A stretch of DNA of 20,019 bases from Myxococcota bacterium (lineage in GTDB: Bacteria > Myxococcota_A > UBA796 > GCA-2862545). Made by a program: the position numbers and the translations under genes. The notes beneath the pieces were generated by a model. It did no database searches, was not told the origin of the DNA, and saw only the letters and a list, made by a program, of their open reading frames with translations. Numbering within the stretch: position 1 is the stretch's first letter; each line of letters starts with the position of its first letter. Location: contig JBCCQY010000173.1 of assembly GCA_039208735.1 (NCBI GenBank), positions 1 through 20,019 of the forward strand. The letters are read 5' to 3'. Of the stretch, positions 425-18,716 are shown in pieces.

Positions 425-3400
425 CTACAGGGTGACGGACGCGCCCAAGGCGTGGCGAAGCGCGAGGTAGGTCCGAATCAGGCGGTGACGGGCCCGATCG
501 CGATCGGCCTGCTGGCGGCTCGCCGCGGCTTGAAGTTGAAGCACGTCGATGATCGTGGCTCGCCCCGCGGCGTACTGCGCCTCGACCAGTCGCAGGGCTT
601 CCTGGGCCTGCTCGAGGGCCGCATCCCGCACGGGGACGGCTTCTTGCGCCACGCGGTATTGGGCTTGAGCACTCGCCCATGCCACCGTGAACTGGCGGTC
701 GAGTTCATCCCGATCCGCTCGGAGCGCGGCAACCTGGCGCGTCAACGCACGGTCTTGCGCCTGTCGAGCCCCGCGGGCCACCGGGGTCCACGCGGCGACG
801 ACGGACCCCTGCAACCACGTGTTGGGCACAAGCACTTGGTTGTTGGTGCCAGAGAAGCGACCCTCGAGCGAGACGGTGGGAAGCGCGTCACCCCGCAGCG
901 CGGTCCGTTGACGGCGCACGGCGGTAATGGCGGCATCGAGCGCCCCTTGCTCGGGGCGGTCCGCACGATCGGGCAGGAGGTCGGGAAGCGCGAGTTCCTG
1001 CTTGACACAGGTGAGCGCGGTCTCCGCGCCGGTGGCCGCCGCCAAAGCCACTTGGGCGACGTCCTGCTGTTGCTCAAGGGCAAATCGCTGTTGGACGGCA
1101 TCGAGACGGGCCACCTCGATCTGCAGGGCGTCGGATTTGAGGGCCCGTCCTTCGCGGCGCAGCGCCTCAACCCGCTGCGCCTGTTGTTCAAGGGCCGTGA
1201 TCTGGTCGGTCAAGGCCTGGATGGCGGCGGTGAGGTCCCACTGGTCGAGGCAGGCATTGGCGGCCGCCAGTCGAGCGTCGCGCGTGGTGGCTTCGCGCTC
1301 TGCGGTGCGCTGGTTGCGTTGGGCGCGGGCGGCCTGCCACCGAGCCCAGTCTCCGGCGGCAAGCACGGACACCTGCAACACGGCCGCCCCTTCGATCGTG
1401 TCTTGGGGGGTCTGGAGAATCTCGATGGGTGCATCCGGTACATCGAGCACGAGGTCCGCTTCCCGACGGGTGGCCGTGACCGACCCCGAAACGGCAGGCA
1501 GGAAGGCTTGGCCAAAGGCGGCCTGGGTTTCGGCGGCAGCGGCGGAGTCTCGGTAGGCGGCGGCCTGAACCGAAGGACGCTCGGCGGCCGCATCCATTGC
1601 GGTGGCCAGATCGACGGTGCGCGGCGCGGCTTCGGTGGTCGCGGGCACGAGGAGGAGAGCCAGGCCCATGGCCAATGCGGGGCGAACCCCCGGGGGAAAG
1701 TTGGGCATCTCGTTGCGGAATGTCAGCATGTAGAGCGCGGGGACCACCAGGAGGGTGAGTCCCGTCGAGGCGACCAGGCCGCTGATGAGGGCGCTTGCGA
1801 GCGGTGGCCAAAGCGTGCTCGACGAGAACAGCAAGGGCAACATGCCGACGATCGTGGTCAACGTGGTGAGCAAGATGGGCCGCATGCGTTTGATGACCGC
1901 ATCCGAGACCGCGTCTTTGATGGAAAGGCCTTCCTTCCTGCGCTGATCGATCCAGTCGATCAAGATGATGGCGTTGTTGACCACGATGCCGATGAGCGCG
2001 AACACTCCGAGGAGCGAGGTGAACCCAAACGGCTGTCCACTGATCACCAGGCCGGGAATCACCCCGGTGGCGGCCAAGGGAACGGTGGCGAGCACGATGG
2101 TCACGCGGCGGAACGAGCTGAACTGTGCAAGCAGGAACAAGATGAGCAGCAGTCCACCCATCGGCGCAGCGACCAAGATGGCCGTGTTGGCGCTTTCGGA
2201 GCCTTCGGCCTCGCCGCCAATCTGCAGTTCAAGGTCGTAGGCTTCGACGATCTCGTCCACCTTGGGACGAAGTTCGCCCGCGACCTGGTTGAAGGCGAAG
2301 CCTGGGCGTAGCTGGGCGGCGACCGTCGCAATCCGCTGACGGTCACGGCGATGGAGAACCGTCGGGCGAAACTCGACCGCGGTCGATGCGAAGTTGGCCA
2401 GGGGCGCCGGACCCTTTGGCGACCACACATCGACCGTAGGCAAGTCGGCCAGCGCGAAGCGCTCCCCGGCCCGTGAGCGTACGACGATGTCGATGGGCTC
2501 GGCCTCGGTCCACAGGGATCCCGCCGGAAGCCCGCGGGTCTGTGAGAGAACGGCTTGGGCCACCGTCGCCGGTGCGATTCCCAAGAACGACGTCGCTTCG
2601 TCAATCACGGCCATGGCCAGGGTCGGGGTGCCTTGGCCCAAGTTGTGGCGGACGTCGGTGGTGGCATCGTGGCCCCGGAGCACTTGGTGCAGGGCGTTCG
2701 CCGCATTCCAAAGGTCAACGACATCGTCCCCGACGAGTCGGTACTCAAGGGGCGCTTCGAGGGGCGGACCCTGCTCGAGCTTGCGAGCGATGAAGGCGAC
2801 ACCCGCCAGATCTCGGGTCTGTTGCCGGGCCCACGCGAGCAAGGGCTCAACGTCGGCGGTGGACCGCGTCGTGACGAGCAGCTGGGCGACGTGAGGGGCT
2901 TGGGGTCGTTGCAGAAGATTGTAGTAGAACGGCGGGGTGCTTCGGCCTACGAAGCTCGCGACCTGCGTCACCTCAGGACGTTGGAGCAGCGCGCGTTCGA
3001 AATCCGCTGCCACGTCGCTCGTCGCTTCGAGGTGGGAGCCTTCTGCAAGTTCGAGGGTGAAGACGGCCTGGTTGCGGTCTCCGGCCGGGAAGAACTGCTG
3101 TTGCACGAACGGCAGCAGCAACAGGACGCCGAACACCAGCGCGGTGGCACCGCCCACTGTCGTCCATGGGAACTGGGTGGGCCACTGGCTTAGCCGTGAG
3201 AGCAGCGGCGAGTCGGCGAAGGTTCGGCGGGGATTGGGCTTGAAGAACTGGGCCGCCAGCATCGGCGTGACCGTGATGGCGAAGAAGAAGCTCACGACGA
3301 GTGTGAGCATCACCAGCTGAGGGATGGCCCGAGTGAAGTCGCCCGACGGGCCCTCGGAGAGGAGAAGCGGCACGAAGCTCGCGAGGGTGGTGCCCGTCGC

Positions 3401-4699
3401 GGTGAACAGCGGCCAAGCCAGTTCTCGAACGGTTCCCGAAGCGGCGTCTTCGCCAGATTCTCCCTCATCGATCCGGGCCTGCACTCGCTCGGCCACGACG
3501 ATGGCGTTGTCGACGAGGAGTCCGAGCGACAAGACTAGGGCCGCGACCGAGATCTGCTGGAGGATACCGCCATTGAGCGCATAAATCGCAAGCGACGACA
3601 GAGTGACGAGGGGAACGACGCTCGCCACCACCCCGCCCAGCCGTAGGCCCATGGCGGCGAAGAGGACGAGGCCTACGATCAACGCGCCCTGGAGTAGCGA
3701 GCCCCCGAGGCTCCCGAGCCGACCTTCGACGCGCATTGGCTGATTCGTCACGACGGTCAAGGTTAGGGGCGCCAACTCGGGTCGTAGCCGATCGAGGGTC
3801 GCCTGGACCTCCTCGCCGAACGACACGACGTCGATGCCGGACCGGGGATTGACCCCCACCGCCACCGCCGTCTGTCCGTTGAGCCGCATGAGGGCCTCGG
3901 CGGGCTGGGTCGGTTCATACCGGACGTCCGCGAGCTGCGCCAAAGGCACCGACGAGCCCGATGCTAGCGCGATGGGCATGCCTTCGAGCGCGTCGAGGTC
4001 GGCAAAGTCTGAGCGGGGGTCGACCACCACGGTGCGCCCCCCATCCACGACCCGACCGCCGGGAACGATGGTCGTGCGGATGCCGATCTGCTGGGCGAGT
4101 TGGCCTTTGGAGAGGCCGTAGCGTCGGACGGCAGCATCATCGACGCGAACCGTGATTTGCTCGCCCGGGTCGGGGGTGACGGTGACCTCGCGGGTGTTGC
4201 GGATGCGCCGGAGTTCGTCGGTGAGCGTCTCGGCGGCCTGACGCAACGCGAGGCGGTCGTCGCTGCCCGTGATGGCGACCATCACGCTCTGCAGACGAGT
4301 GAGTTCGTTATCGATGCGGATCGGCAAGGCGGCATCCGGAAGGTCCGCTTGGACCTCCAAGAGCCGCTCTTCCACATCGTCCCAGTAGGGGTCGGGCTCC
4401 GCGATGGTGTCGTCGAGCTGCACGGACATCACCGCCACCCCCGCCCGGGCGGTGGCTCGGATGTGCTCGATTCCTTCGACGTCCGCTAGTGCATCTTCGA
4501 TGGGCTCGACGACAAGCCGTTCCACGCGCTCCGCATCGGCCCCGGGCAGTGGAGCAATCACAAGCCCGTTGCGGTTGGGGAAGGTGGGGTCTTCTTGGCG
4601 CGGCATGACAAACCAGGCGACCAGCCCCGCGAGGGCCAACGCCGAGGCGAGCAGGTAGATCAGACGCCGCTGATCCAGGATGAGACGTTCGAGGCTCAT
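425..4699 (-). CDS. RND efflux permease (AcrB/AcrD/AcrF family) fused to a C-terminal TolC-family outer membrane factor, 1424 aa
   Basis: Residues ~1-995 are an RND permease: MPRQEDP after TM1, PGADAERVERLV, TM4 GLLVDNAIVVAE, TM10 GIVVNNAIILID, RMRPILLTTLTT, WPPLA. Residues ~1025-1424 show two OEP repeats: FLPAVSGS / EGRALKSDALQ and ALPTVSLEG / QYAAGRATIIDVLQ, ending LRHALG. The frame is continuous. Confidence 0.92.
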   Translation of the reverse strand: MSLERLILDQRRLIYLLASALALAGLVAWFVMPRQEDPTFPNRNGLVIAPLPGADAERVERLVVEPIEDALADVEGIEHIRATARAGVAVMSVQLDDTIAEPDPYWDDVEERLLEVQADLPDAALPIRIDNELTRLQSVMVAITGSDDRLALRQAAETLTDELRRIRNTREVTVTPDPGEQITVRVDDAAVRRYGLSKGQLAQQIGIRTTIVPGGRVVDGGRTVVVDPRSDFADLDALEGMPIALASGSSVPLAQLADVRYEPTQPAEALMRLNGQTAVAVGVNPRSGIDVVSFGEEVQATLDRLRPELAPLTLTVVTNQPMRVEGRLGSLGGSLLQGALIVGLVLFAAMGLRLGGVVASVVPLVTLSSLAIYALNGGILQQISVAALVLSLGLLVDNAIVVAERVQARIDEGESGEDAASGTVRELAWPLFTATGTTLASFVPLLLSEGPSGDFTRAIPQLVMLTLVVSFFFAITVTPMLAAQFFKPNPRRTFADSPLLSRLSQWPTQFPWTTVGGATALVFGVLLLLPFVQQQFFPAGDRNQAVFTLELAEGSHLEATSDVAADFERALLQRPEVTQVASFVGRSTPPFYYNLLQRPQAPHVAQLLVTTRSTADVEPLLAWARQQTRDLAGVAFIARKLEQGPPLEAPLEYRLVGDDVVDLWNAANALHQVLRGHDATTDVRHNLGQGTPTLAMAVIDEATSFLGIAPATVAQAVLSQTRGLPAGSLWTEAEPIDIVVRSRAGERFALADLPTVDVWSPKGPAPLANFASTAVEFRPTVLHRRDRQRIATVAAQLRPGFAFNQVAGELRPKVDEIVEAYDLELQIGGEAEGSESANTAILVAAPMGGLLLILFLLAQFSSFRRVTIVLATVPLAATGVIPGLVISGQPFGFTSLLGVFALIGIVVNNAIILIDWIDQRRKEGLSIKDAVSDAVIKRMRPILLTTLTTIVGMLPLLFSSSTLWPPLASALISGLVASTGLTLLVVPALYMLTFRNEMPNFPPGVRPALAMGLALLLVPATTEAAPRTVDLATAMDAAAERPSVQAAAYRDSAAAAETQAAFGQAFLPAVSGSVTATRREADLVLDVPDAPIEILQTPQDTIEGAAVLQVSVLAAGDWARWQAARAQRNQRTAEREATTRDARLAAANACLDQWDLTAAIQALTDQITALEQQAQRVEALRREGRALKSDALQIEVARLDAVQQRFALEQQQDVAQVALAAATGAETALTCVKQELALPDLLPDRADRPEQGALDAAITAVRRQRTALRGDALPTVSLEGRFSGTNNQVLVPNTWLQGSVVAAWTPVARGARQAQDRALTRQVAALRADRDELDRQFTVAWASAQAQYRVAQEAVPVRDAALEQAQEALRLVEAQYAAGRATIIDVLQLQAAASRQQADRDRARHRLIRTYLALRHALGASVTL

Positions 4700-5757
4700 C
4701 GGGTCACCTCCGCGCGCTCGACGCGCTCACCCACGACAAGTCCGATGTGACCGGCCACGATGACCTCGTCGCCGGGACGCAGATCGCCCTCGACGACGAT
4801 GGAAGCGCCCCGGGCTCGCCCGACTCGCACCGAGACAGACTCCGTCGTGCCATCGTCGAGCACTCGTACGACCTCGGTCCGGTCTCCAAAGGGCGACACG
4901 ATCGCGGCCAGGGGCACCACAACGCCCGTGCTCTCACCTGCGGGCACCGCGACGCGAGCCGTGAGTCCGGGCACGATGTCGCTGTCTTGGGGCAACGCCA
5001 CGACCAGGGGGAATCCTCGAGTGCCCGTCGTGGCCGCTCGCGAGACCGATTGCACGCGCCCAGTCACGGGTTCTCGCTCGGCGAGGGGGAACGAGACCGT
5101 GAGCGAGTCGCCTTGGTTCACCGAGGAGGTATCGGCCTCGACGAGCGCCACCTCGACTTCCACTGCATCGAGCGACCGCAAGGCCACGACAGGCTGCCCG
5201 GGGCTCACCACCGCCCCCTCATCGGCCATCCGGGCCGTGATCGTGCCGGTGAAGGGCGCTGTCAGCACCGTTTCGTCCTGCTGCCAACGCGCTTCTGCCA
5301 ACTGGGCTCGCACGGATTCGACGCTGCGTTCCAGGGCTGTCACCCCAGATTTGCGCTGCTCGAGTTCCTCGAAGGCGGCCGCTTCGATTTCGGCCAGGCG
5401 TGCGGCCCGATCTCGGTCCCGGATGGCCTGAGAAAGGCGCTCTTCGAGTTCTGCGAGGCGCCCCCGGGCAGCGTCAACGGTGAGCCCAAAGCGCTCACCC
5501 TCGATGCGGGCAATCGGCTGACCCGCTTCGACCGAATCGCCGGCATCGACGGTGAGCCGCGCAATCCGCCCTCCGACCGCGAACGACAAAACAGCCTCAT
5601 CCGCCGAGCGCACGATGCCTGTGTAGGACCGGGCCGCCGCCTCACCACTTTCACTCACCGACTCCGTTCGAACGACCACGGGCCGAATCGAGGACTCGAC
5701 ACCCGAGGCCCCCGATCCGCACCCCACCAGTGCGAACCATGCGATTACCACCGTCAC
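4696..5757 (-). CDS. RND efflux periplasmic adaptor (membrane fusion protein), probable lipoprotein
   Basis: GTG start preceded by AAAGGAGG. Lipobox-like LVGC, lipoyl half-motifs LSFAVGGRI...GDSVEAGQ and LTAPFTGTI...GAVVSPGQPV, a coiled-coil hairpin, and C-terminal GDLRPGDEVIVAG. ATGA overlap with the RND gene. Confidence 0.92.
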   Translation of the reverse strand: MTVVIAWFALVGCGSGASGVESSIRPVVVRTESVSESGEAAARSYTGIVRSADEAVLSFAVGGRIARLTVDAGDSVEAGQPIARIEGERFGLTVDAARGRLAELEERLSQAIRDRDRAARLAEIEAAAFEELEQRKSGVTALERSVESVRAQLAEARWQQDETVLTAPFTGTITARMADEGAVVSPGQPVVALRSLDAVEVEVALVEADTSSVNQGDSLTVSFPLAEREPVTGRVQSVSRAATTGTRGFPLVVALPQDSDIVPGLTARVAVPAGESTGVVVPLAAIVSPFGDRTEVVRVLDDGTTESVSVRVGRARGASIVVEGDLRPGDEVIVAGHIGLVVGERVERAEVTR

Positions 5758-11948: not shown

Positions 11949-12089
11949 GGCGACTCCAAGCGAGGCGCGGGCGTCATCGGATCAATGGTGTGGTGCCTCG
12001 ATCCGATGCCGTGAAGGAACCGCTCGGAGAGGCGTCGAATCCCCGTGGCGCGCACGCTAATGGAGATGCGCGTCCGCTGTGGAGGTCTG

Positions 12090-12530
12090 GTGATTCGCTT
12101 CGTCGTCGATTGGTTCGTCCTCACGTTGTCGGTCGGACTCGCCGCGTGGTTTTTGCCCGGCGTGCACATCGAGTCGGTGTCGGCGTTGCTGTGGGCGGGC
12201 ACCGCGCTTGGCTTCGTCAACGTCGTGATCCGGCCCATCTTTTCATGGCTGACGTTGCCCATTCGGTTCGTCACGCTCGGGCTGTTCACGTTTGTGCTGA
12301 ATGGGGCCGCGTTCTACCTGGCGACGATCTTCGTGCCGGGCTTTTCGTTGGCGGGCCGCAGCTTTCTGTGGGCCATGGCCGGAGCCTTGTTCGTGAGCGT
12401 GGTCTCCTGGATCCTGGGCGACCTCGGTTACCGCCGTCAGCGCAAAAAGTGGGCCGAAGAACGGACACGTTCCACTCCGCGGGTCTCTCGGAGCTCGACG
12501 CGCACCACCCGCGACAACATCGGCTCGTAG
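12090..12530 (+). CDS. 4-TM membrane protein, YvlD/DUF360 (phage holin superfamily IV-like) family
   Basis: PGVHI...ALGFVNVVIRPIFSWLTLPIRFVTLGLFTFVLNG...VPGFS matches the family signature. GTG 12090 after GGAGG. Basic C-terminal tail. Confidence 0.85.
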   Translation: MIRFVVDWFVLTLSVGLAAWFLPGVHIESVSALLWAGTALGFVNVVIRPIFSWLTLPIRFVTLGLFTFVLNGAAFYLATIFVPGFSLAGRSFLWAMAGALFVSVVSWILGDLGYRRQRKKWAEERTRSTPRVSRSSTRTTRDNIGS

Positions 12531-13220
12531 TCATGCCCACCAGGCGTCGTGGGCTCGGCGAGTGTCCAATACGGTGGTTTCGCGTTTGATTTCGACCGGA
12601 ACAAGCCCTTGGACCTCGAGGAGGGTGACGGCGTGAAGAACCCGGGCGTCCACCGCGGCGCGGTCGCCCTTGTAGGCCCGAAGGGTGACGAACTGGACCA
12701 CTTGGTCGTTCCGACGTTCGTACGGATTCCGCGACGGTCGCCATCCGACATCGCGACCCGCCTGCTCAAGCCAGGCGTAGGTTTCGTCGAAGGCTTCGGC
12801 ATCGATGGAGAGCTTGATGTGGACTTCGTGGTAGCGCTCGGCATCGAAGAATTCGAGGGAAGGAAGACTTTCATGCTCGATCTTCACGCGAATGGGCTCC
12901 ACGTGAGCCTCCAGGAGGCCGGTCACCGTGACGCGGAGATCGTCGGCAATGCGGGCGACGGCGCCCGGCTGATCATCGACGAAGTACCGTGTGAACATGA
13001 CGTCCCGCTCCACCCTGCGGTCGAGATCTGCAAGCTCGATGACGGTGAGCTTCGCGCGGTGCGCGGTGGCCAAGCGTTCGAGGGTGGCCCGAAGGTCGGC
13101 CGGCAGCGCGGCGGGCACGCGCAACGTCACATGGCTGTGAAACCGGCCTTCGAGGTTTGAGAGCGGAGGCTGTTCCAATCGATCGCGTCGAGCATCGAGC
13201 GCTGCGAGAACGGGGTGCAT
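12531..13220 (-). CDS. Hypothetical protein with two internally repeated His-motif halves
   Basis: ATG 13220 lies 1 nt downstream of the LRR gene stop. Motifs FHSHVTL...RVKIE and YHEVHIKL...SRNP...QFVTLR...KRETTVLDT...DAWW. Function not recognised. Confidence 0.8.
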   Translation of the reverse strand: MHPVLAALDARRDRLEQPPLSNLEGRFHSHVTLRVPAALPADLRATLERLATAHRAKLTVIELADLDRRVERDVMFTRYFVDDQPGAVARIADDLRVTVTGLLEAHVEPIRVKIEHESLPSLEFFDAERYHEVHIKLSIDAEAFDETYAWLEQAGRDVGWRPSRNPYERRNDQVVQFVTLRAYKGDRAAVDARVLHAVTLLEVQGLVPVEIKRETTVLDTRRAHDAWWA

Positions 13221-13221
13221 G

Positions 13222-15093
13222 TCAGGCGTACTCCGCCCAACGCGCACCGAACCGCCGCGTCAGCTCCTCATTGGTTTCGCTCGAATAGCGCCAGGGCTGG
13301 CCCGTGACGCGGAACATGCGCAGCGGCTTTGGAAATCCACCGGCGAGTCGCAGCAGATCGGCCTCATCGAACGCGTTGTTTCGAAGGAGCAGCCGGTCTA
13401 GGTGCGGCAAACGAGGCCAAGCCAACAACGTTTCGATGGCCTCGCTGGTCAACCCACAGCGGGTCAGGTCGAGATCGACGAGTTGTTCGCCGAGCGGACC
13501 CTCCACAAGGAGGGCCAGTCCGCGATTACCGAGATTCGTGCCTTCAAGGCTTAGGCGCACGAGCTGTGGAGCGCCCTCTCCGATCGTCGAACTCCACGTG
13601 AGGTCGGGCACCCGGGTAAGGTCCAACGCCGTGAGATTGGGCGCGTCCGCCAACAACATGGGTAGCGCCGGACCGATGTGGTTGTTGTTCAGGTCGAGGT
13701 GCTCCACGTTGCGTAGGGTGCTGTGCGCGTTCAGCGCATGGTCCGAGAGCAGGCCGCTCTCACCAAGGTTGAGCACGGCAATTCGGGCGTCGCCAAAGGC
13801 AGCGAGCGCGTCCTCCACGAGGTTGCGATGGACAACCAGTTCCTCGAGCGAGCGGATCCAAGGTAATTCTGCCAGTCGTGCCACATCGTTGGGGCTAAGC
13901 TCGCAATCTTCGAGCCGGAGCGTGTGCAGGGCTTGGGGCGGCGAGGCGCTGGCCAGCAGGTCACCCAGTCCCGCCAAGGCGGTTTCCGAAAGGTTCAGCG
14001 TGCGCAGTGAAGACCAGCAAGGGGCTTCGATGATGTGATGCACGTCAGCCAAGGCGAGCGGGTTTTGCCGGAGGTCAAGTTCGCGCAACGCTGCGAGTCG
14101 AGGGTGATGGAGAAAGCCGAGTTGGTCGCCTGCGATGTCGTTGTCGGCGAGTCGCAGTTGCTCGACGGGAGCCCCTTCGGGCAACGTGACCGCGTTCAGT
14201 TCGAGCCGGTTGAGCGAGATGCGCTCGAGTTTCGTGAACCGGTTCAGCAGGAGTTCCGCACCCTCGTTGCCCAACCGCTGGAGATCGAGGTTCAATTCGC
14301 GAAGGTCGCCAAGCGCATCCGCTCCGGCAATCAAGCGGGCGCCATCGACCCCCAAGGTCGGGTCCTCGAAGTAGCCGCTGTCGTAGTCGACGAAGTCCGT
14401 TCCTAGATCGAGCGTTTCGAGGGCGTAACCCTGCTTGACAGCACGCCGGGCGTGCAGGGTCGCGAGGGTGTGGTGACCTCGAATGCGGAACGTTCGCAGT
14501 CGGGGAAGCTTTAGGGCGCGGAGCAAATCGTCGTAGACGTCGTCTTCGGCGCTATTCGCCCAGGCTTCGATACTCGGCACGTCACCCAACAGCCGCTGGA
14601 TGGCGGACCGCTCGGACGACGAGAGCTGAAACCACTCGGATCGGTCGCTGCCTACGAGCTGGATGGCCCGCACCCAGGGCAAGGCTTTGGCCACCCATGG
14701 GCCAGGCTTGCTTTCCTCTAGCTTGAACCGCACGGTATGCACAGGCTGAAGCGCCTGAATCGCGTCCGCGTGGTTGAACAAGGCGCCGACGTGGTCTACC
14801 TCCACCGTGCCGAAGAATCCCCGATCCAGGGTGCCCCAGTGAATGCCCTCAAATTCGGGCAATTCGGCGCGCCACCGCGCATGGTGGAGCCGTTCAAGGG
14901 TGTGGGCATGACGAGCGGCTCGTACGGTCTCGCGAGCGTCTGCGGGACCTTGGGCCACCCGCAGCTGGAGGCGGATCAACGTGGCGCGGGCCACGTCACC
15001 GTGCTCGTCGAGCCAGTCCGCTGCGATCTGTCGCGGCGCATCCGCCAACGGATCCGCAAGCACCGCCGAGAGCAGTTCGGGTGCGATCGACAC
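13222..15093 (-). CDS. TIGR02996 (repeat-companion) domain protein with about 15 leucine-rich repeats
   Basis: N-terminal LLSAVLADPLADAPRQIAADWLDEHGD..RATLIRLQL and RGF motif. LRRs include LRELNLDLQRLGNEGA, LRELDLRQNPL, LRTLNLSETAL, VEHLDLNNNHI, LVRLSLEGTNLGNRGL and LVDLDLTRCGLTSEA. GTG start after GGAGG. Confidence 0.9.
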   Translation of the reverse strand: MSIAPELLSAVLADPLADAPRQIAADWLDEHGDVARATLIRLQLRVAQGPADARETVRAARHAHTLERLHHARWRAELPEFEGIHWGTLDRGFFGTVEVDHVGALFNHADAIQALQPVHTVRFKLEESKPGPWVAKALPWVRAIQLVGSDRSEWFQLSSSERSAIQRLLGDVPSIEAWANSAEDDVYDDLLRALKLPRLRTFRIRGHHTLATLHARRAVKQGYALETLDLGTDFVDYDSGYFEDPTLGVDGARLIAGADALGDLRELNLDLQRLGNEGAELLLNRFTKLERISLNRLELNAVTLPEGAPVEQLRLADNDIAGDQLGFLHHPRLAALRELDLRQNPLALADVHHIIEAPCWSSLRTLNLSETALAGLGDLLASASPPQALHTLRLEDCELSPNDVARLAELPWIRSLEELVVHRNLVEDALAAFGDARIAVLNLGESGLLSDHALNAHSTLRNVEHLDLNNNHIGPALPMLLADAPNLTALDLTRVPDLTWSSTIGEGAPQLVRLSLEGTNLGNRGLALLVEGPLGEQLVDLDLTRCGLTSEAIETLLAWPRLPHLDRLLLRNNAFDEADLLRLAGGFPKPLRMFRVTGQPWRYSSETNEELTRRFGARWAEYA

Positions 15094-15124
15094 GAGACCT
15101 CCGTGAGCACGAAAGGCCTATCCG

Positions 15125-15931
15125 TCACGCGGGAAGGCGCGCAAGGGCGGCTGCGAGCCTCTTTCTGACCGTTTCGAGGGTGGTTTGGAGGTCTCCCGGG
15201 GTTTCGCTGTCTCGCCAACGGCGTGAGGCGGACTTCGCGGTCCAGTGTGCGGCGGACAGTGTGGTTCGAGCCGATTCGTAGCTGAAGCCTCGTGAAGCGA
15301 ACGCGGCGTCGATCGCAGGGGTGAGCACGGCATCCTCGAGCGGGACGCCTTTGATGATTCGGCACAGATCGGCCAGGTCCTTGGGGCGAAACCGCGGGCC
15401 ACACTCGGCAAGGCCGTGCAGCTTCCAAGCGACTTGGGTCTCGGGAGCGCACGCCCGAATGTGGGGCGGCGCTCCGATGAGAGAGGGGTAGTCCATCTCT
15501 TGAGCGGGGGGCACCAAGGGGTCGCCGTAGCCAACGTCCGCCGTCACCACGATGACGGTTTCGCCGAAGCCCACGGGAATCTGCGCCCGAATTCCCGGAA
15601 ATGCAGTGTGGAGCCAGATTCCTTTCGTGCGCACCGCGGCCCCGTCAACCTGCAGGCCATCGTCGATGGAAACCTGGCCGATCGCGCGCAGGCGTTCGGT
15701 CGTCATGGCGACGTCGAAATCGTGGTCCCCCACCAGGTCGAGGTCTTGGGTGGACCGTCCTGGAGACCACACCCGGGTCATCAGACCGCCCCGCAGCACG
15801 AAGTCGTTGCGCACAGGGCTGTGGGCCAGGCGGCGAAGCAGCCCCTCCAGCAAGTGGTGGCGCATGGCCTCCTCCGGGGATTCCCCTCGGCGATGACCTT
15901 CCGCGATGGCGGCTTCGACCTGTTCGATCAC
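15125..15931 (-). CDS. AbiEii/AbiGii-family (DUF1814-like) nucleotidyltransferase toxin-like protein
   Basis: LLEGLLRRLA, FVLRGGLM, RSTQDLDL (Pol-beta DxD), DVGYGDP, PETQVAWKLH and RPKDLADL are the characteristic AbiEii motifs. Confidence 0.88.
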   Translation of the reverse strand: MIEQVEAAIAEGHRRGESPEEAMRHHLLEGLLRRLAHSPVRNDFVLRGGLMTRVWSPGRSTQDLDLVGDHDFDVAMTTERLRAIGQVSIDDGLQVDGAAVRTKGIWLHTAFPGIRAQIPVGFGETVIVVTADVGYGDPLVPPAQEMDYPSLIGAPPHIRACAPETQVAWKLHGLAECGPRFRPKDLADLCRIIKGVPLEDAVLTPAIDAAFASRGFSYESARTTLSAAHWTAKSASRRWRDSETPGDLQTTLETVRKRLAAALARLPA

Positions 15932-15961: not shown

Positions 15962-16477
15962 TCATGGGAGTGGCTGCGGGGGATCGCCCACGAAGGGATC
16001 GTAGGCCGAGTTCGCGTAGTTCCAACGCTTCCCGTAGACGTGAACGTCGTCAGTGGGCTTGCCGGTTGGGGTGACCAAGGGGCCCCCCGCATGCGTCCAA
16101 GCGAGGATGCTCCCCCGGAAGTTCGTCGCGTTCACGCCCTCCTTGGCCAGCCGACGCGCGACGTAGCCCGAGCGAACGCCCACGGTGCAGTAGGTGACGA
16201 CCGGCCGACCGTTGTGACGAGCTCGGTTGGCCTCGTAGTCCTCGAGAGAAATGGCCCCTGGCAGGATGCTTACGGCTCGCTCGTGGGGGTCGCGAACGTC
16301 GATGAGCAGCGGAGGAGTGTCGCGGTTGAGGTCTTTCATCAACGTCGCCGCGTCAATCGTGGGGATGCCAGGCGCGGTGAGGGCCCATGCGTCGTAAAGT
16401 TGATCGAGGGCTCGCGCCGTTTCAGCGTCCGTGACCGACGACTGGGCACAGGCAATCATCGCGAAGGTCCACAGCAT
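15962..16477 (-). CDS. Rhodanese-like domain protein, probable lipoprotein
   Basis: LLIDVRDPHERAVSILPGA, active-site loop YCTVGVRS, and GSILAW. Short hydrophobic N-terminus ending MIAC. Confidence 0.88.
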   Translation of the reverse strand: MLWTFAMIACAQSSVTDAETARALDQLYDAWALTAPGIPTIDAATLMKDLNRDTPPLLIDVRDPHERAVSILPGAISLEDYEANRARHNGRPVVTYCTVGVRSGYVARRLAKEGVNATNFRGSILAWTHAGGPLVTPTGKPTDDVHVYGKRWNYANSAYDPFVGDPPQPLP

Positions 16478-16568: not shown

Positions 16569-17201
16569 ATGCCGCGAAAGAAGAGCGAACATTGCCGTTT
16601 GGCGATTCTGCGGGCCTGCCTGAAGGTCCTCGATGAAAAGGGCTACCTCGACCTCACCATCGAAGAGGTGGCGTCGAAAGCACAGGCAGGAAAGCAGACG
16701 GTTTACCGACACTTTGGGAGCAAGGCACGGCTCGCGCTCGAGGCGTTTACCCACATTACCGACCAGGCGGTCCCCGAAGACACCGGATCGCTTGGGGCTG
16801 ACCTGCAGTCCTTCCTGCACGAACGGATCGAGCGGGTGGATTTTCCGAAGAAGCGTCAGATGGTGAGCGGGTTGCTCGCCGAAGCCCAATGCGACCCTGA
16901 CTTCGCGGCGTGCTTTCGTCAGACCTATGTGAAGGCGCATCGGCGCCCGGTTCGCACGATCTTCCGTCGGGCGATTGCCAGGGGAGAGGTCGATCCTGAG
17001 GCAAACATCGAGTTGTTTGTCGACCTGTTGTTCGGGCCTTGGCTCTATCGGCTCCTCGCGACCGGTGATTCCATCGATCCGCAGTTTGCGACCGAACTCT
17101 CCTTTGCCGTCGCCCACGCGGCAACCCTCACCGCACCACCCCTGGCTCGCCCCCATCGCGACGAAGACGTAGCCACACCACGCCGGGTGATGCGAAGCTG
17201 A
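16569..17201 (+). CDS. TetR/AcrR-family transcriptional regulator
   Basis: HTH LTIEEVASKAQAGKQTVYRHFGSK, PEDTGSLGADL, RAIARGEV and DLLFGPWLYRLL C-terminal domain. Confidence 0.92.
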   Translation: MPRKKSEHCRLAILRACLKVLDEKGYLDLTIEEVASKAQAGKQTVYRHFGSKARLALEAFTHITDQAVPEDTGSLGADLQSFLHERIERVDFPKKRQMVSGLLAEAQCDPDFAACFRQTYVKAHRRPVRTIFRRAIARGEVDPEANIELFVDLLFGPWLYRLLATGDSIDPQFATELSFAVAHAATLTAPPLARPHRDEDVATPRRVMRS

Positions 17202-17219
17202 CGCTCTCGAAAGGAGAGC

Positions 17220-18716
17220 GTGATGATGTGGTGGTTGGGATGTCTCGCGGCGCAGGCCTCGAGCCTGGACTTGATCGAGGTCGGCGGGGCTTTTGGTACG
17301 CCGGCGGCGACCAACCCCACCGCCGTGTGGTGGAACCCGGCGGGCCTGGCGGTGCATGGCGGCAATCGGGTGTTGGTCGAAGTCGCGCCAACGCTCGGCT
17401 CGGTGCGGATCGATCGGGATAATCCTAACTATGGCGAGATCAACACCGACAATCTCCCGCCGGGCTTTCCCACGTCGTACGACTACAGCGGCCAAGACCG
17501 CATTGGCTTCGTAGGGGTGATTCCCTTTGTGGGGGTGCAGACCGACCTTGGTATCGACAACCTGGGTTTGGGGGCGGCCTTTTACGTGCCGTTTGCTCGA
17601 GCGGGCGGTCTTGACGATCCCAACGGGCCCAACCGATTCATGGTTCGCGATGGTGCCATCCGGACCCTCAACGTGTCGTTGGCCGCCGCCTATCAATTGG
17701 CCGATGTGATTTCGTTTGGCGTGACGGGATCGGTGGTTCGCAACCAGTACCGGGTCGACACCGACACGGCGTTCTACGCCGATCTGCTCGATGGCGGACG
17801 ACTGGCCGGCTTCGATGACGACGAGCTGCAGACGTTCCAAGACCCCTATTCAGAGCAGCCGGGCTACAGCGTCCAGTCCATCTTTGACCTCGCGGACACG
17901 GCGCTCACCTTCGGGGCAGGGATCTACCTGACGCCGAGCGAGCGGGTGGGCATCTCGTTGGCGTACCAGCACGGGATGCGCCTCGACAACGAAGGGGACC
18001 TGACGCTCAACTTCGATTGTCCGCCGGAGTACGACACGATCGCGCGCGCTTCTGCCGAAGCCATTGGCACCTGCAACACCAGCGTGAGCGGCACGGGAAC
18101 CATCGGGTACCGCCTGCCCGGGCGAATCCAGGGCGGGGTGGCGTTTCGTCCCACCGACAAGCTGCGACTCGAGGCCATGGGGGCCGTCGTGTTTTGGTCG
18201 GTATTCACCGACTACGAGATCCAGCCCTTGGTTGCGCCCAGCGCCTTTGTCGAGGCCGAAGGCGAAGGCAACCGCGTTGTCGCATCCCAGCTCGCGTCCG
18301 TGTTTCGGCCCTGGGCCCGTGACAATCGAACGAGTGGCTGGTTTGGGTTGGATGCGAAGGGAGCCGTCGGCAAGGTGCTGACGCTTGGAGGCCGGGTCAT
18401 TTACGATCGGGCTGCCGTGCCGTCGTCCGCGGTGTCGGCGAACAACTATGACGCAGATAGCCTGCTGTTCTCAGGGCTCGTCGACATCGCAGCGATCGAC
18501 CGTCTTTCGGTGGCCCTGTCGTTTGGCCATCAGGCGTTCGCCCGCCGTACCGTGACGGATTCGGCCTTCGCCATTTGGGCGGATCGTGAAGCCCGTCCTG
18601 CCGACCCTCGCTATTTCTACCCGTCTGCAAACGGCGTTTATCGTGGGGGCATCACCCGCATCGGGATCACGTTGCGGGCTCGTTTGGGGGAGGGCCACAC
18701 CGCAACCGACCTCTGA
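17220..18716 (+). CDS. OmpP1/FadL/TodX-family outer membrane channel for hydrophobic compounds
   Basis: Short signal peptide ending AQA, hatch motif TAVWWNPAGL, GAAFYVPF, alternating beta-strands (NVSLAAAYQL, VISFGVTG), LPGRIQGGVAFRP, WSVF and YDRAAVP. RBS AAGGAG. The exact start (GTG or one of two following ATGs) is uncertain. Confidence 0.85.
   Translation: MMMWWLGCLAAQASSLDLIEVGGAFGTPAATNPTAVWWNPAGLAVHGGNRVLVEVAPTLGSVRIDRDNPNYGEINTDNLPPGFPTSYDYSGQDRIGFVGVIPFVGVQTDLGIDNLGLGAAFYVPFARAGGLDDPNGPNRFMVRDGAIRTLNVSLAAAYQLADVISFGVTGSVVRNQYRVDTDTAFYADLLDGGRLAGFDDDELQTFQDPYSEQPGYSVQSIFDLADTALTFGAGIYLTPSERVGISLAYQHGMRLDNEGDLTLNFDCPPEYDTIARASAEAIGTCNTSVSGTGTIGYRLPGRIQGGVAFRPTDKLRLEAMGAVVFWSVFTDYEIQPLVAPSAFVEAEGEGNRVVASQLASVFRPWARDNRTSGWFGLDAKGAVGKVLTLGGRVIYDRAAVPSSAVSANNYDADSLLFSGLVDIAAIDRLSVALSFGHQAFARRTVTDSAFAIWADREARPADPRYFYPSANGVYRGGITRIGITLRARLGEGHTATDL

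Follow-up and report, generated by a model that had tools for sequence, protein, structure and literature searches.

Characterised DUF1814 nucleotidyltransferases (NTases) are toxins restrained by AbiEi or MenA antitoxins, and MenT toxins extend the 3'-CCA of tRNA (bioRxiv 10.64898/2026.01.19.700257; PMC11375011). Binding of the antitoxin triggers autophosphorylation of the NTase at a T65-type residue (same two sources), AbiEi works via an acidic loop (D85/E86/I87; bioRxiv 10.64898/2026.01.19.700257), and motifs I–IV of the DUF1814/AbiEii family were defined in PMC3985639. RlaP enzymes are pol-beta NTases that accompany RNA ligases and, by prediction, put back missing nucleotides ahead of the ligation step (PMC7824862). 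The DNA analysed here, 20,019 nt from a Myxococcota bacterium (JBCCQY010000173.1, one contig within a 9.4-Mb assembly; hereafter the window), carries a DUF1814/AbiEii NTase gene followed by genes for a leucine-rich repeat (LRR) protein with a TIGR02996 domain and for a protein with a duplicated histidine motif (His protein). Proteins closely related to those of the assembly are labelled Myxococcales or Myxococcota. The original prediction presented these three genes as a candidate undescribed module around an orphan NTase. The general finding is a clade of NTases that lack AbiEi and have one or the other of two sets of partners; the three-gene locus (the triple) is a narrow hybrid of these.

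Partners of an AbiEi-less nucleotidyltransferase clade

Ninety NTase domains were sorted by their gene neighbours. A canonical AbiEi gene preceded 56; 13 had a TIGR02996 gene only (11 lying directly upstream of it, one at 0.9 kb and one divergent to a weak match), two stood in triples, seven followed a His gene, nine were fused to a T4-type RNA ligase (with a His gene within 3.5 kb in 8/9), and for three no partner was found. Among these 90 domains, AbiEi (56) and the TIGR02996, His or ligase partners (31) never co-occurred. Two loci were added after the classification: an NTase-LRR pair (L157) whose genome belongs to another class, and a locus with RNA ligase, Ham1-His and NTase (L158). Sequences were then placed in a FastTree phylogeny of 83 NTases (a third of the canonical ones retained, 32 of unknown context), in which the non-AbiEi NTases formed a single clade (support 0.88). 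Within it, support was 0.97 for a His/ligase branch and 0.90 for an LRR branch, which holds both triples.

The phosphoacceptor position was Thr in 51/51 parsed canonical NTases (5 unparsed) and in 4/29 parsed AbiEi-less NTases (2 unparsed), both triples included. Thr was retained in 1/14 parsed His-linked NTases, and Ala or Val replaced it in 12/13 pair-only (LRR-linked) copies. The window NTase, whose predicted identity was confirmed by PF08843 (Table 1), keeps motifs I–II intact (hGG...R..DhD; G48, G49, R59, D63 and D65), together with motif III K170 and motif IV D185/D188 as aligned to 9HLO, the S. agalactiae AbiEii that was the best match of the clade profile among solved structures (E 5e-25). 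As predicted, no AbiEi-type helix-turn-helix (HTH) gene adjoins it, the upstream neighbour being a rhodanese gene. Elsewhere in the genome, AbiEi profiles gave strong matches on contigs C283 and C151 only and one weak match on C57. Each of the two canonical AbiEi genes stops 72 nt short of a contig end, and in that remaining stretch its own AbiEii begins; they are therefore not the linked partner of the window NTase, and the claim of an orphan without a cognate AbiEi elsewhere held. An AbiEi acting in trans was considered and set aside because both canonical copies own an AbiEii, though cross-talk may occur.

NTase genes followed by TIGR02996-LRR genes were found in seven genomes, with at most five pairs per genome. 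In the genome of the window, 4/5 complete DUF1814 genes had a same-strand TIGR02996 gene <1 kb downstream (expected ~1e-10 if independent, which paralogues are not). A sulfotransferase-like gene followed the pair in L129, L064 and L157 and directly followed the NTase in L133, a sulfatase gene followed the pair in L069, and a divergent radical-SAM gene stood upstream of the L157 pair and, as judged by eye, of the L064 pair. Proteins joining zf-PARP (below the Pfam cut-off) to TIGR02996 were encoded ~2.5 kb upstream of pairs (L060:659-2218 and L061:9314-10927), which suggests nick sensing by TIGR02996 proteins.

The His+NTase pair spanned four phyla (Myxococcota, Planctomycetota in L027, Actinomycetota and Deinococcus). 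An RNA ligase was fused or adjacent in 12/16 cellular His+NTase loci, as counted from Pfam for six fusions and four neighbours and from a local profile for L024 and L025. Most of what was recovered by phylum searches with a broad NTase alignment, and by a search of Planctomycetota, was canonical AbiEi-AbiEii. Endonuclease dU (PF01949) adjoined three His-NTase-ligase loci (L015, L024 and L158), and near an RNA ligase-His-NTase operon lay a gene (L011:2852-4408) whose protein combines an ADP-ribosyltransferase domain with a region weakly matching uracil-DNA glycosylase. A lone His gene occupied the same site in genomes G152 (L008/L026), where it is TAG-interrupted, and G182 (L007/L029), where 6.8 kb, including a small AbiEi-AbiEii-like pair, separate it from an NTase-ligase fusion.

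The triple recurred in identical NTase-LRR-His order, with unrelated flanks, in a second species of the same genus (L023, genome G307; identities to the window of 53% for the NTase, 37% for the LRR protein and 61% for the His protein), as the prediction of a conserved linkage across genomes would have it. It is not a fixed unit, however: among the NTase-TIGR02996 loci examined, 14 lacked a His gene and two had one. A check of homologue neighbourhoods gave recurring NTase-LRR pairs, His+NTase pairs and His-AbiEii fusions. A scan of the genome collection with the His alignment returned seven loci, one of them a triple (L023); among family genomes the His gene was present in 6/49 and the triple in 2/49. 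No further triple was found in samples of 401 phylum and 182 class genomes, with few candidates scored per genome. Metagenomic homologues of NTase, LRR and His protein shared a JGI contig size of 8490 nt (2 contigs each), with partial size matches for LRR and His (4343 nt) and for NTase and His (12829 nt). A third triple thus probably lies on one metagenomic contig, as judged from equal sizes only.

The closest LRR homologues were from Kofleriaceae. The His gene was present in 4/6 family genomes with NTase-LRR pairs vs 2/43 others (kin that are not independent), and in 5/7 of all genomes with such pairs. In a poorly resolved His protein tree, the triple's copy was grouped with members some of which precede NTase-ligase fusions. 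Because the triples nest in the LRR branch and their His protein groups partly with NTase-ligase-linked members, the triple most likely arose when, at the level of the genus, a His gene became linked again to an NTase of the LRR type.

The serine loop and the histidine-motif protein

The predicted TIGR02996-LRR identity was upheld by a TIGR02996 domain at 41.5 bits (curated cut-off 29.05; residues 5-47, N-terminal to the repeats) and by LRR_4/LRR_6. The LRR protein was modelled at a predicted local distance difference test (pLDDT) score of 92 as a solenoid like those of ribonuclease inhibitor (RI) and NLRP proteins, and Foldseek returned NLRP LRRs and ribonuclease inhibitors as best matches (E ~1e-10, template modelling (TM) score 0.44-0.54 by query). 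The loop inserted in one repeat (residues 229-248; 6 D/E, no K/R) was modelled as coil at pLDDT 67-74 and was nearly invariant among LRR homologues otherwise 33-50% identical. All 15 full-length NTase-linked LRRs carried an insert at this site, with Ser in the S239 column in 14 and off by one residue in the other; L157, from another class, also has the loop Ser, which brings the count to 15/16 linked LRRs overall. The Ser was found in 0/8 unlinked TIGR02996 proteins aligned (of 38 unlinked in the genome), and S239 was the sole non-Leu invariant in a 22-row LRR alignment. Of the three proteins the LRR protein diverged fastest, with identities of 37-51% (NTase, 53-64%; His protein, 61-68%). We infer, from sequence comparison, that the LRR protein may be a dedicated NTase partner that acts through its acidic serine loop. 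Complex prediction of NTase with LRR gave 0.31, 0.01 and 0.32 in successive runs against a mark of 0.32, with controls at 0.00-0.02, and decides nothing either way. Genome-wide, 42 TIGR02996 matches were counted with varied C-terminal parts, long LRRs being only a subset, and a full-text literature search found no paper on TIGR02996-LRR proteins.

The duplicated His motif (FHSHVT / YHEVHIK) proved, as predicted, to be a true internal repeat (hhalign of halves, P 96.6, E 5e-10). The model of the protein (pLDDT 92.8) comprised two beta-alpha-beta-beta-alpha-beta (ferredoxin-like) repeats, and searches of Pfam, NCBIfam and PHROG gave no match. Two PADLOC 'AbiEi' models matched it at full length (PDLC02277, E 1.1e-19; PDLC02279, E 2.8e-14), so AbiEi-model and AbiEii-model matches are both present at the locus, with one gene between. 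The claim of an undescribed system was thereby narrowed: the His+NTase pair is already in the detection database, because PADLOC AbiE models describe both families, but the LRR protein had no PADLOC match, and it and the ligase link lie outside that model. Canonical AbiEi proteins gave no match to PDLC02277 or PDLC02279 at E 1e-6, and the His protein had neither the winged HTH plus C-terminal domain of AbiEi in its model fold nor a Pfam AbiEi match. Judged from its model, the His protein is not an AbiEi, because it has a tandem ferredoxin fold without a close solved relative; its family is an uncharacterised, enzyme-like one that is mislabelled AbiEi in PADLOC. CYTH/TTM, HIT, 2H and inorganic pyrophosphatase folds were absent from the structure matches listed for the model. 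Viral fold matches, one of them bearing the title inorganic pyrophosphatase domain, were too weak (E ~2e-3 to 4e-3) to be counted, and an Atlas search of named clusters by features returned no named neighbour.

Fourteen residues, mostly R/K/E/H/D/S/N, were invariant in 38/38 His-family sequences down to ~25% identity, and H30 was kept in 36. Several of the invariants alternate along strands (R111/K113/E115, Y130/E132/H134 and S163/N165), as would be expected for a lined pocket. Family members were fused to Ham1, NUDIX, MazG and AbiEii domains. Homologues were found in phages (22 and 189 records) and family folds in giant viruses (Fadolivirus, Bodo saltans virus, Klosneuvirus and Yasminevirus; TM 0.67-0.72, BFVD), with no NTase annotated beside the viral copies. 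Across seven phage His loci, an RNA ligase lay within 3.5 kb in three (Rnl1, Rnl2-like and RtcB, three families), tRNA genes in two and a hydrolase/PRTase/MazG/Macro cluster in one; the last was uninformative. In one Klebsiella phage (KP13-26, L109) the His homologue was clustered with hydrolase, PRTase_3, MazG, Macro and Alx, an arrangement kept in phAPEC8-like phages. A scan of viral contigs with the myxobacterial His alignment gave 16 pattern matches, 0 of them confirmed.

These partners of the His family cleave alpha-beta bonds of nucleoside triphosphates, most releasing pyrophosphate. Because of its polar invariants, viral copies and Ham1/MazG/NUDIX fusions, the His protein is likely, as a prediction, a nucleotide phosphoanhydride hydrolase. 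The simplest common helper role would be hydrolysis of pyrophosphate or of nucleotide pyrophosphate bonds, with 3'-end healing or removal of nucleoside monophosphates (NMPs) as the alternative. The association with RNA ligases is a hint that the system repairs RNA and is not simply toxic.

The operon and its surroundings

Coordinates of the annotated features are given in Table 1.

Table 1. Annotated features of the locus (positions in the window)
Feature	Position	Strand	Details
NTase, DUF1814/AbiEii family, AbiEi-less clade	15125..15931	-	268 aa; PF08843 E 7.8e-24; PADLOC PDLC02319 E 4e-61
NTase motif II, R59-S-T61-Q-D63-L-D65	15737..15757	-	T61 aligned with AbiEii T65 phosphoacceptor
LRR protein, TIGR02996 plus ribonuclease-inhibitor/NLRP-like LRRs	13222..15093	-	623 aa
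TIGR02996 N-terminal domain of LRR protein	14953..15081	-	
Acidic loop (residues 229-248), an insertion in one of the LRR repeats	14350..14409	-	Ser239 at 14377-14379
His-motif protein, tandem ferredoxin-like fold	12531..13220	-	229 aa from ATG; without Pfam family
Rhodanese gene, co-oriented, 30 nt upstream of NTase	15962..16477	-	PF00581

Open reading frame (ORF) coordinates agreed with the predicted arrangement of three co-oriented genes on the minus strand, with gaps of 31 nt (NTase to LRR) and 1 nt (LRR to His). The rhodanese gene, a fourth co-oriented gene absent from the original prediction and separated from the NTase gene by 30 nt, is probably co-transcribed with the operon; it was rejected as a component of the system because it is absent from the second triple (L023). 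One database record (P0030) starts the NTase 22 codons later (246 aa), and an in-frame GTG at 13247 would make the His ORF overlap the end of the LRR gene. G+C content at third codon positions of the three genes (0.74-0.76) was like that of adjacent house-keeping genes, and their composition like the rest of the window. A domain search of the window found no defence-island genes flanking the locus. A Phage_holin_4_2 family membrane gene (12045-12530, +) converges on the His gene, the stop codons abutting without a gap. Farther away lie a 1424-aa ORF (425-5757, -) that fuses an AcrB-type resistance-nodulation-division transporter to an outer-membrane efflux domain and is preceded by a HlyD-family adaptor, and, divergent from the operon (16569-18716, +), a TetR regulator gene with a FadL/TodX outer-membrane transporter gene after it.

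Mechanism, alternatives and described systems

The favoured account, held tentatively and as somewhat less than probable, is that of an RNA-end NTase descended from an RNA-repair module, gated by the LRR protein in AbiEi's stead, with a hydrolase, the His protein, as its helper; we infer every functional step. Going by characterised family members, the NTase would add NMPs to the 3' ends of RNA, probably tRNA. The His-linked branch would be an RNA-repair kit in which the NTase restores bases, the ligase seals, and the His protein clears away pyrophosphate or nucleotide ends that are blocked; repair is favoured in this sister branch because its NTases are fused to RNA ligases. In the LRR-linked branch a dedicated clamp would replace the ligase. 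The LRR protein would take over AbiEi's job, its inserted loop keeping the NTase off (here perhaps by promoting T61 autophosphorylation) until a signal sensed by the solenoid or the TIGR02996 domain released it. The His protein, predicted to hydrolyse pyrophosphate bonds of nucleotides with the help of a metal, would assist, and paralogous NTase-LRR pairs may draw on the single His gene in trans. A wider joint reading, doubtful as it stands, has the AbiEii-like clade leaving toxin-antitoxin life for a ligase-linked repair branch and an LRR branch whose loop Ser would replace the lost phosphoacceptor in trans, diversified in myxobacteria as an LRR-gated nucleotidylation switch. Its companion claim, that the repair branch uses new tunnel-type nucleotide hydrolases common to jumbo phages and giant viruses, is likewise held at low probability.

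Several observations weigh against this account. The window NTase retains T61, two residues before the first catalytic Asp, so that classic phospho-control may still operate, and with 31 K/R and 34 D/E it is not net basic. P0097, a close LRR homologue without the loop motif, was excluded from the 22-row alignment; one LRR-branch NTase has no adjoining LRR (L067/L133); and NTase and LRR distances correlate (rho 0.67), a correlation that co-duplication alone would produce. The neighbours of ~35 of the closest NTase homologues (P0036-P0075) lay outside the classification. The chemistry of the His protein is predicted from fusions and conservation, because no solved relative was found and its structure matches are generic ferredoxin-like folds (best VIA, Z 7.1; best sequence match E 0.4). 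Finally, a domain search found no RNA ligase in the window, so the RlaP-type ligase linkage is missing at the locus itself, and the Rnl1-like and Rnl2-like genes of the same genome sit on other contigs.

The PADLOC reading is unlikely: an AbiE-like toxin-antitoxin pair, in which a toxic NTase is countered by the His protein as an antitoxin not homologous to AbiEi and the LRR gene is a lineage-specific insertion, would explain the 'AbiEi' model matches, the His gene placed directly before the NTase (antitoxin-toxin order) in most cellular loci of four phyla, the His-NTase fusions and the retained T61. It fits poorly with a His fold unrelated to AbiEi, with canonical AbiEi missing both models, with enzyme-like invariants kept in phage and giant-virus copies that have no annotated NTase nearby, with the 14 NTase-LRR loci without a His gene, and with a Thr kept in only one of 14 parsed His-linked NTases.

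Originally, a sensor-effector-eraser or guard system had been proposed, with an LRR protein that holds or activates the NTase and a His protein that reverses the NMPylation or processes the nucleotide product. In the version weighed here, an infection-sensing LRR protein would switch on a toxic NTase, and the His protein would take the added nucleotides off tRNA. The conserved triple, the RI/NLRP-like solenoid, the rapid divergence of the LRR protein, and a catalytic-looking His protein present in five of the seven genomes with NTase-LRR pairs agree with it, and phage copies of the His protein could undo host tRNA damage. The scheme is nevertheless rather improbable: the triple occurs in two of 49 family genomes, the Ham1, MazG and NUDIX fusions indicate small-nucleotide substrates, NTase-ligase fusions suit repair better than killing, and the locus has neither flanking defence-island genes nor a PADLOC match for its LRR.

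Some enzymes of the pol-beta fold, among them GlnD and GlnE, NMPylate proteins, and the LRR protein might likewise be the substrate: the NTase would put NMP or phosphate on the loop Ser (or Tyr) as a reversible switch, and the His protein or another hydrolase would remove it. The Ser is kept in 15/16 linked LRRs while the NTase Thr has become Ala or Val in nearly all pair-only copies, and the loop is exposed and flexible in the model. This is quite improbable all the same, as characterised DUF1814 enzymes modify tRNA (bioRxiv 10.64898/2026.01.19.700257), sister NTases are fused to RNA ligases, and conservation of a Ser-Gly turn could be structural. Chance juxtaposition of unrelated genes, for which the abundance of TIGR02996 (42 matches in the genome) and the varying third slot (such as the sulfotransferase-like gene of other loci) might speak, is largely refuted and very improbable given the same-strand linkage of 4/5 DUF1814 genes to TIGR02996 genes, the order kept in other species and the specific loop shared by linked LRRs.

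If the favoured account is true, an NTase branch without the phospho-switch, paired with ligases or LRRs, would give the DUF1814 family a repair or signalling role, and TIGR02996-LRR proteins would gain a defined partner and a testable residue, S239. Two PADLOC 'AbiEi' models are flagged as describing a different, enzyme-like family; because they match this family, which many lytic phages and giant viruses carry, its members are wrongly tallied as AbiE. A simple assay could address the chemistry of the family. Searches of the literature found no test of the His family as an AbiEi, and full-text searches found no paper joining AbiEii, RNA ligase and RNA repair and, among the papers listed, nothing on these NTase pairings, which the neighbourhood lists or supplements of earlier surveys may hold. 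The His/NTase family was absent from the relevant text of PMC9503650 and PMC3632139, and the available part of PMC9252829 gives no account of how the AbiE models were constructed.

Ribonuclease inhibitor and NLRP LRRs are the nearest solved folds to the LRR model, and RI clamps a nucleic-acid enzyme; the window LRR differs in being bacterial and in its TIGR02996 cap and inserted serine loop, and the shared fold shows no function. PADLOC 'AbiE' describes the His and NTase families seen here (PDLC02277/02279 as AbiEi; PDLC02319/02309/02300 as AbiEii), but its AbiEi label is not structural, and the LRR partner and ligase link fall outside the model. Like RlaP, the sister loci associate a pol-beta NTase with RNA ligases, whereas the NTase here belongs to another family (only PF08843 matched), an extra His protein is present, and the window locus has no ligase. 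In the type VII systems MenAT1 and MenAT3, antitoxins of unrelated folds bind a DUF1814 NTase and trigger its autophosphorylation or sequester it (PMC11375011), whereas no MenA-like partner was detected at the window locus and the 623-aa LRR protein would be a regulator of another kind and much greater size. AbiE (AbiEi-AbiEii, COG5340-DUF1814) shares the NTase family, motifs I–IV, the 9HLO profile match and a Thr at the T65 position (T61). It differs from the locus described here in its upstream COG5340 winged-helix AbiEi, in place of which the window has a downstream LRR protein and a tandem-ferredoxin protein, and the window NTase belongs to a clade of its own, most members of which have lost the phosphoacceptor and whose sister members are fused to RNA ligase.

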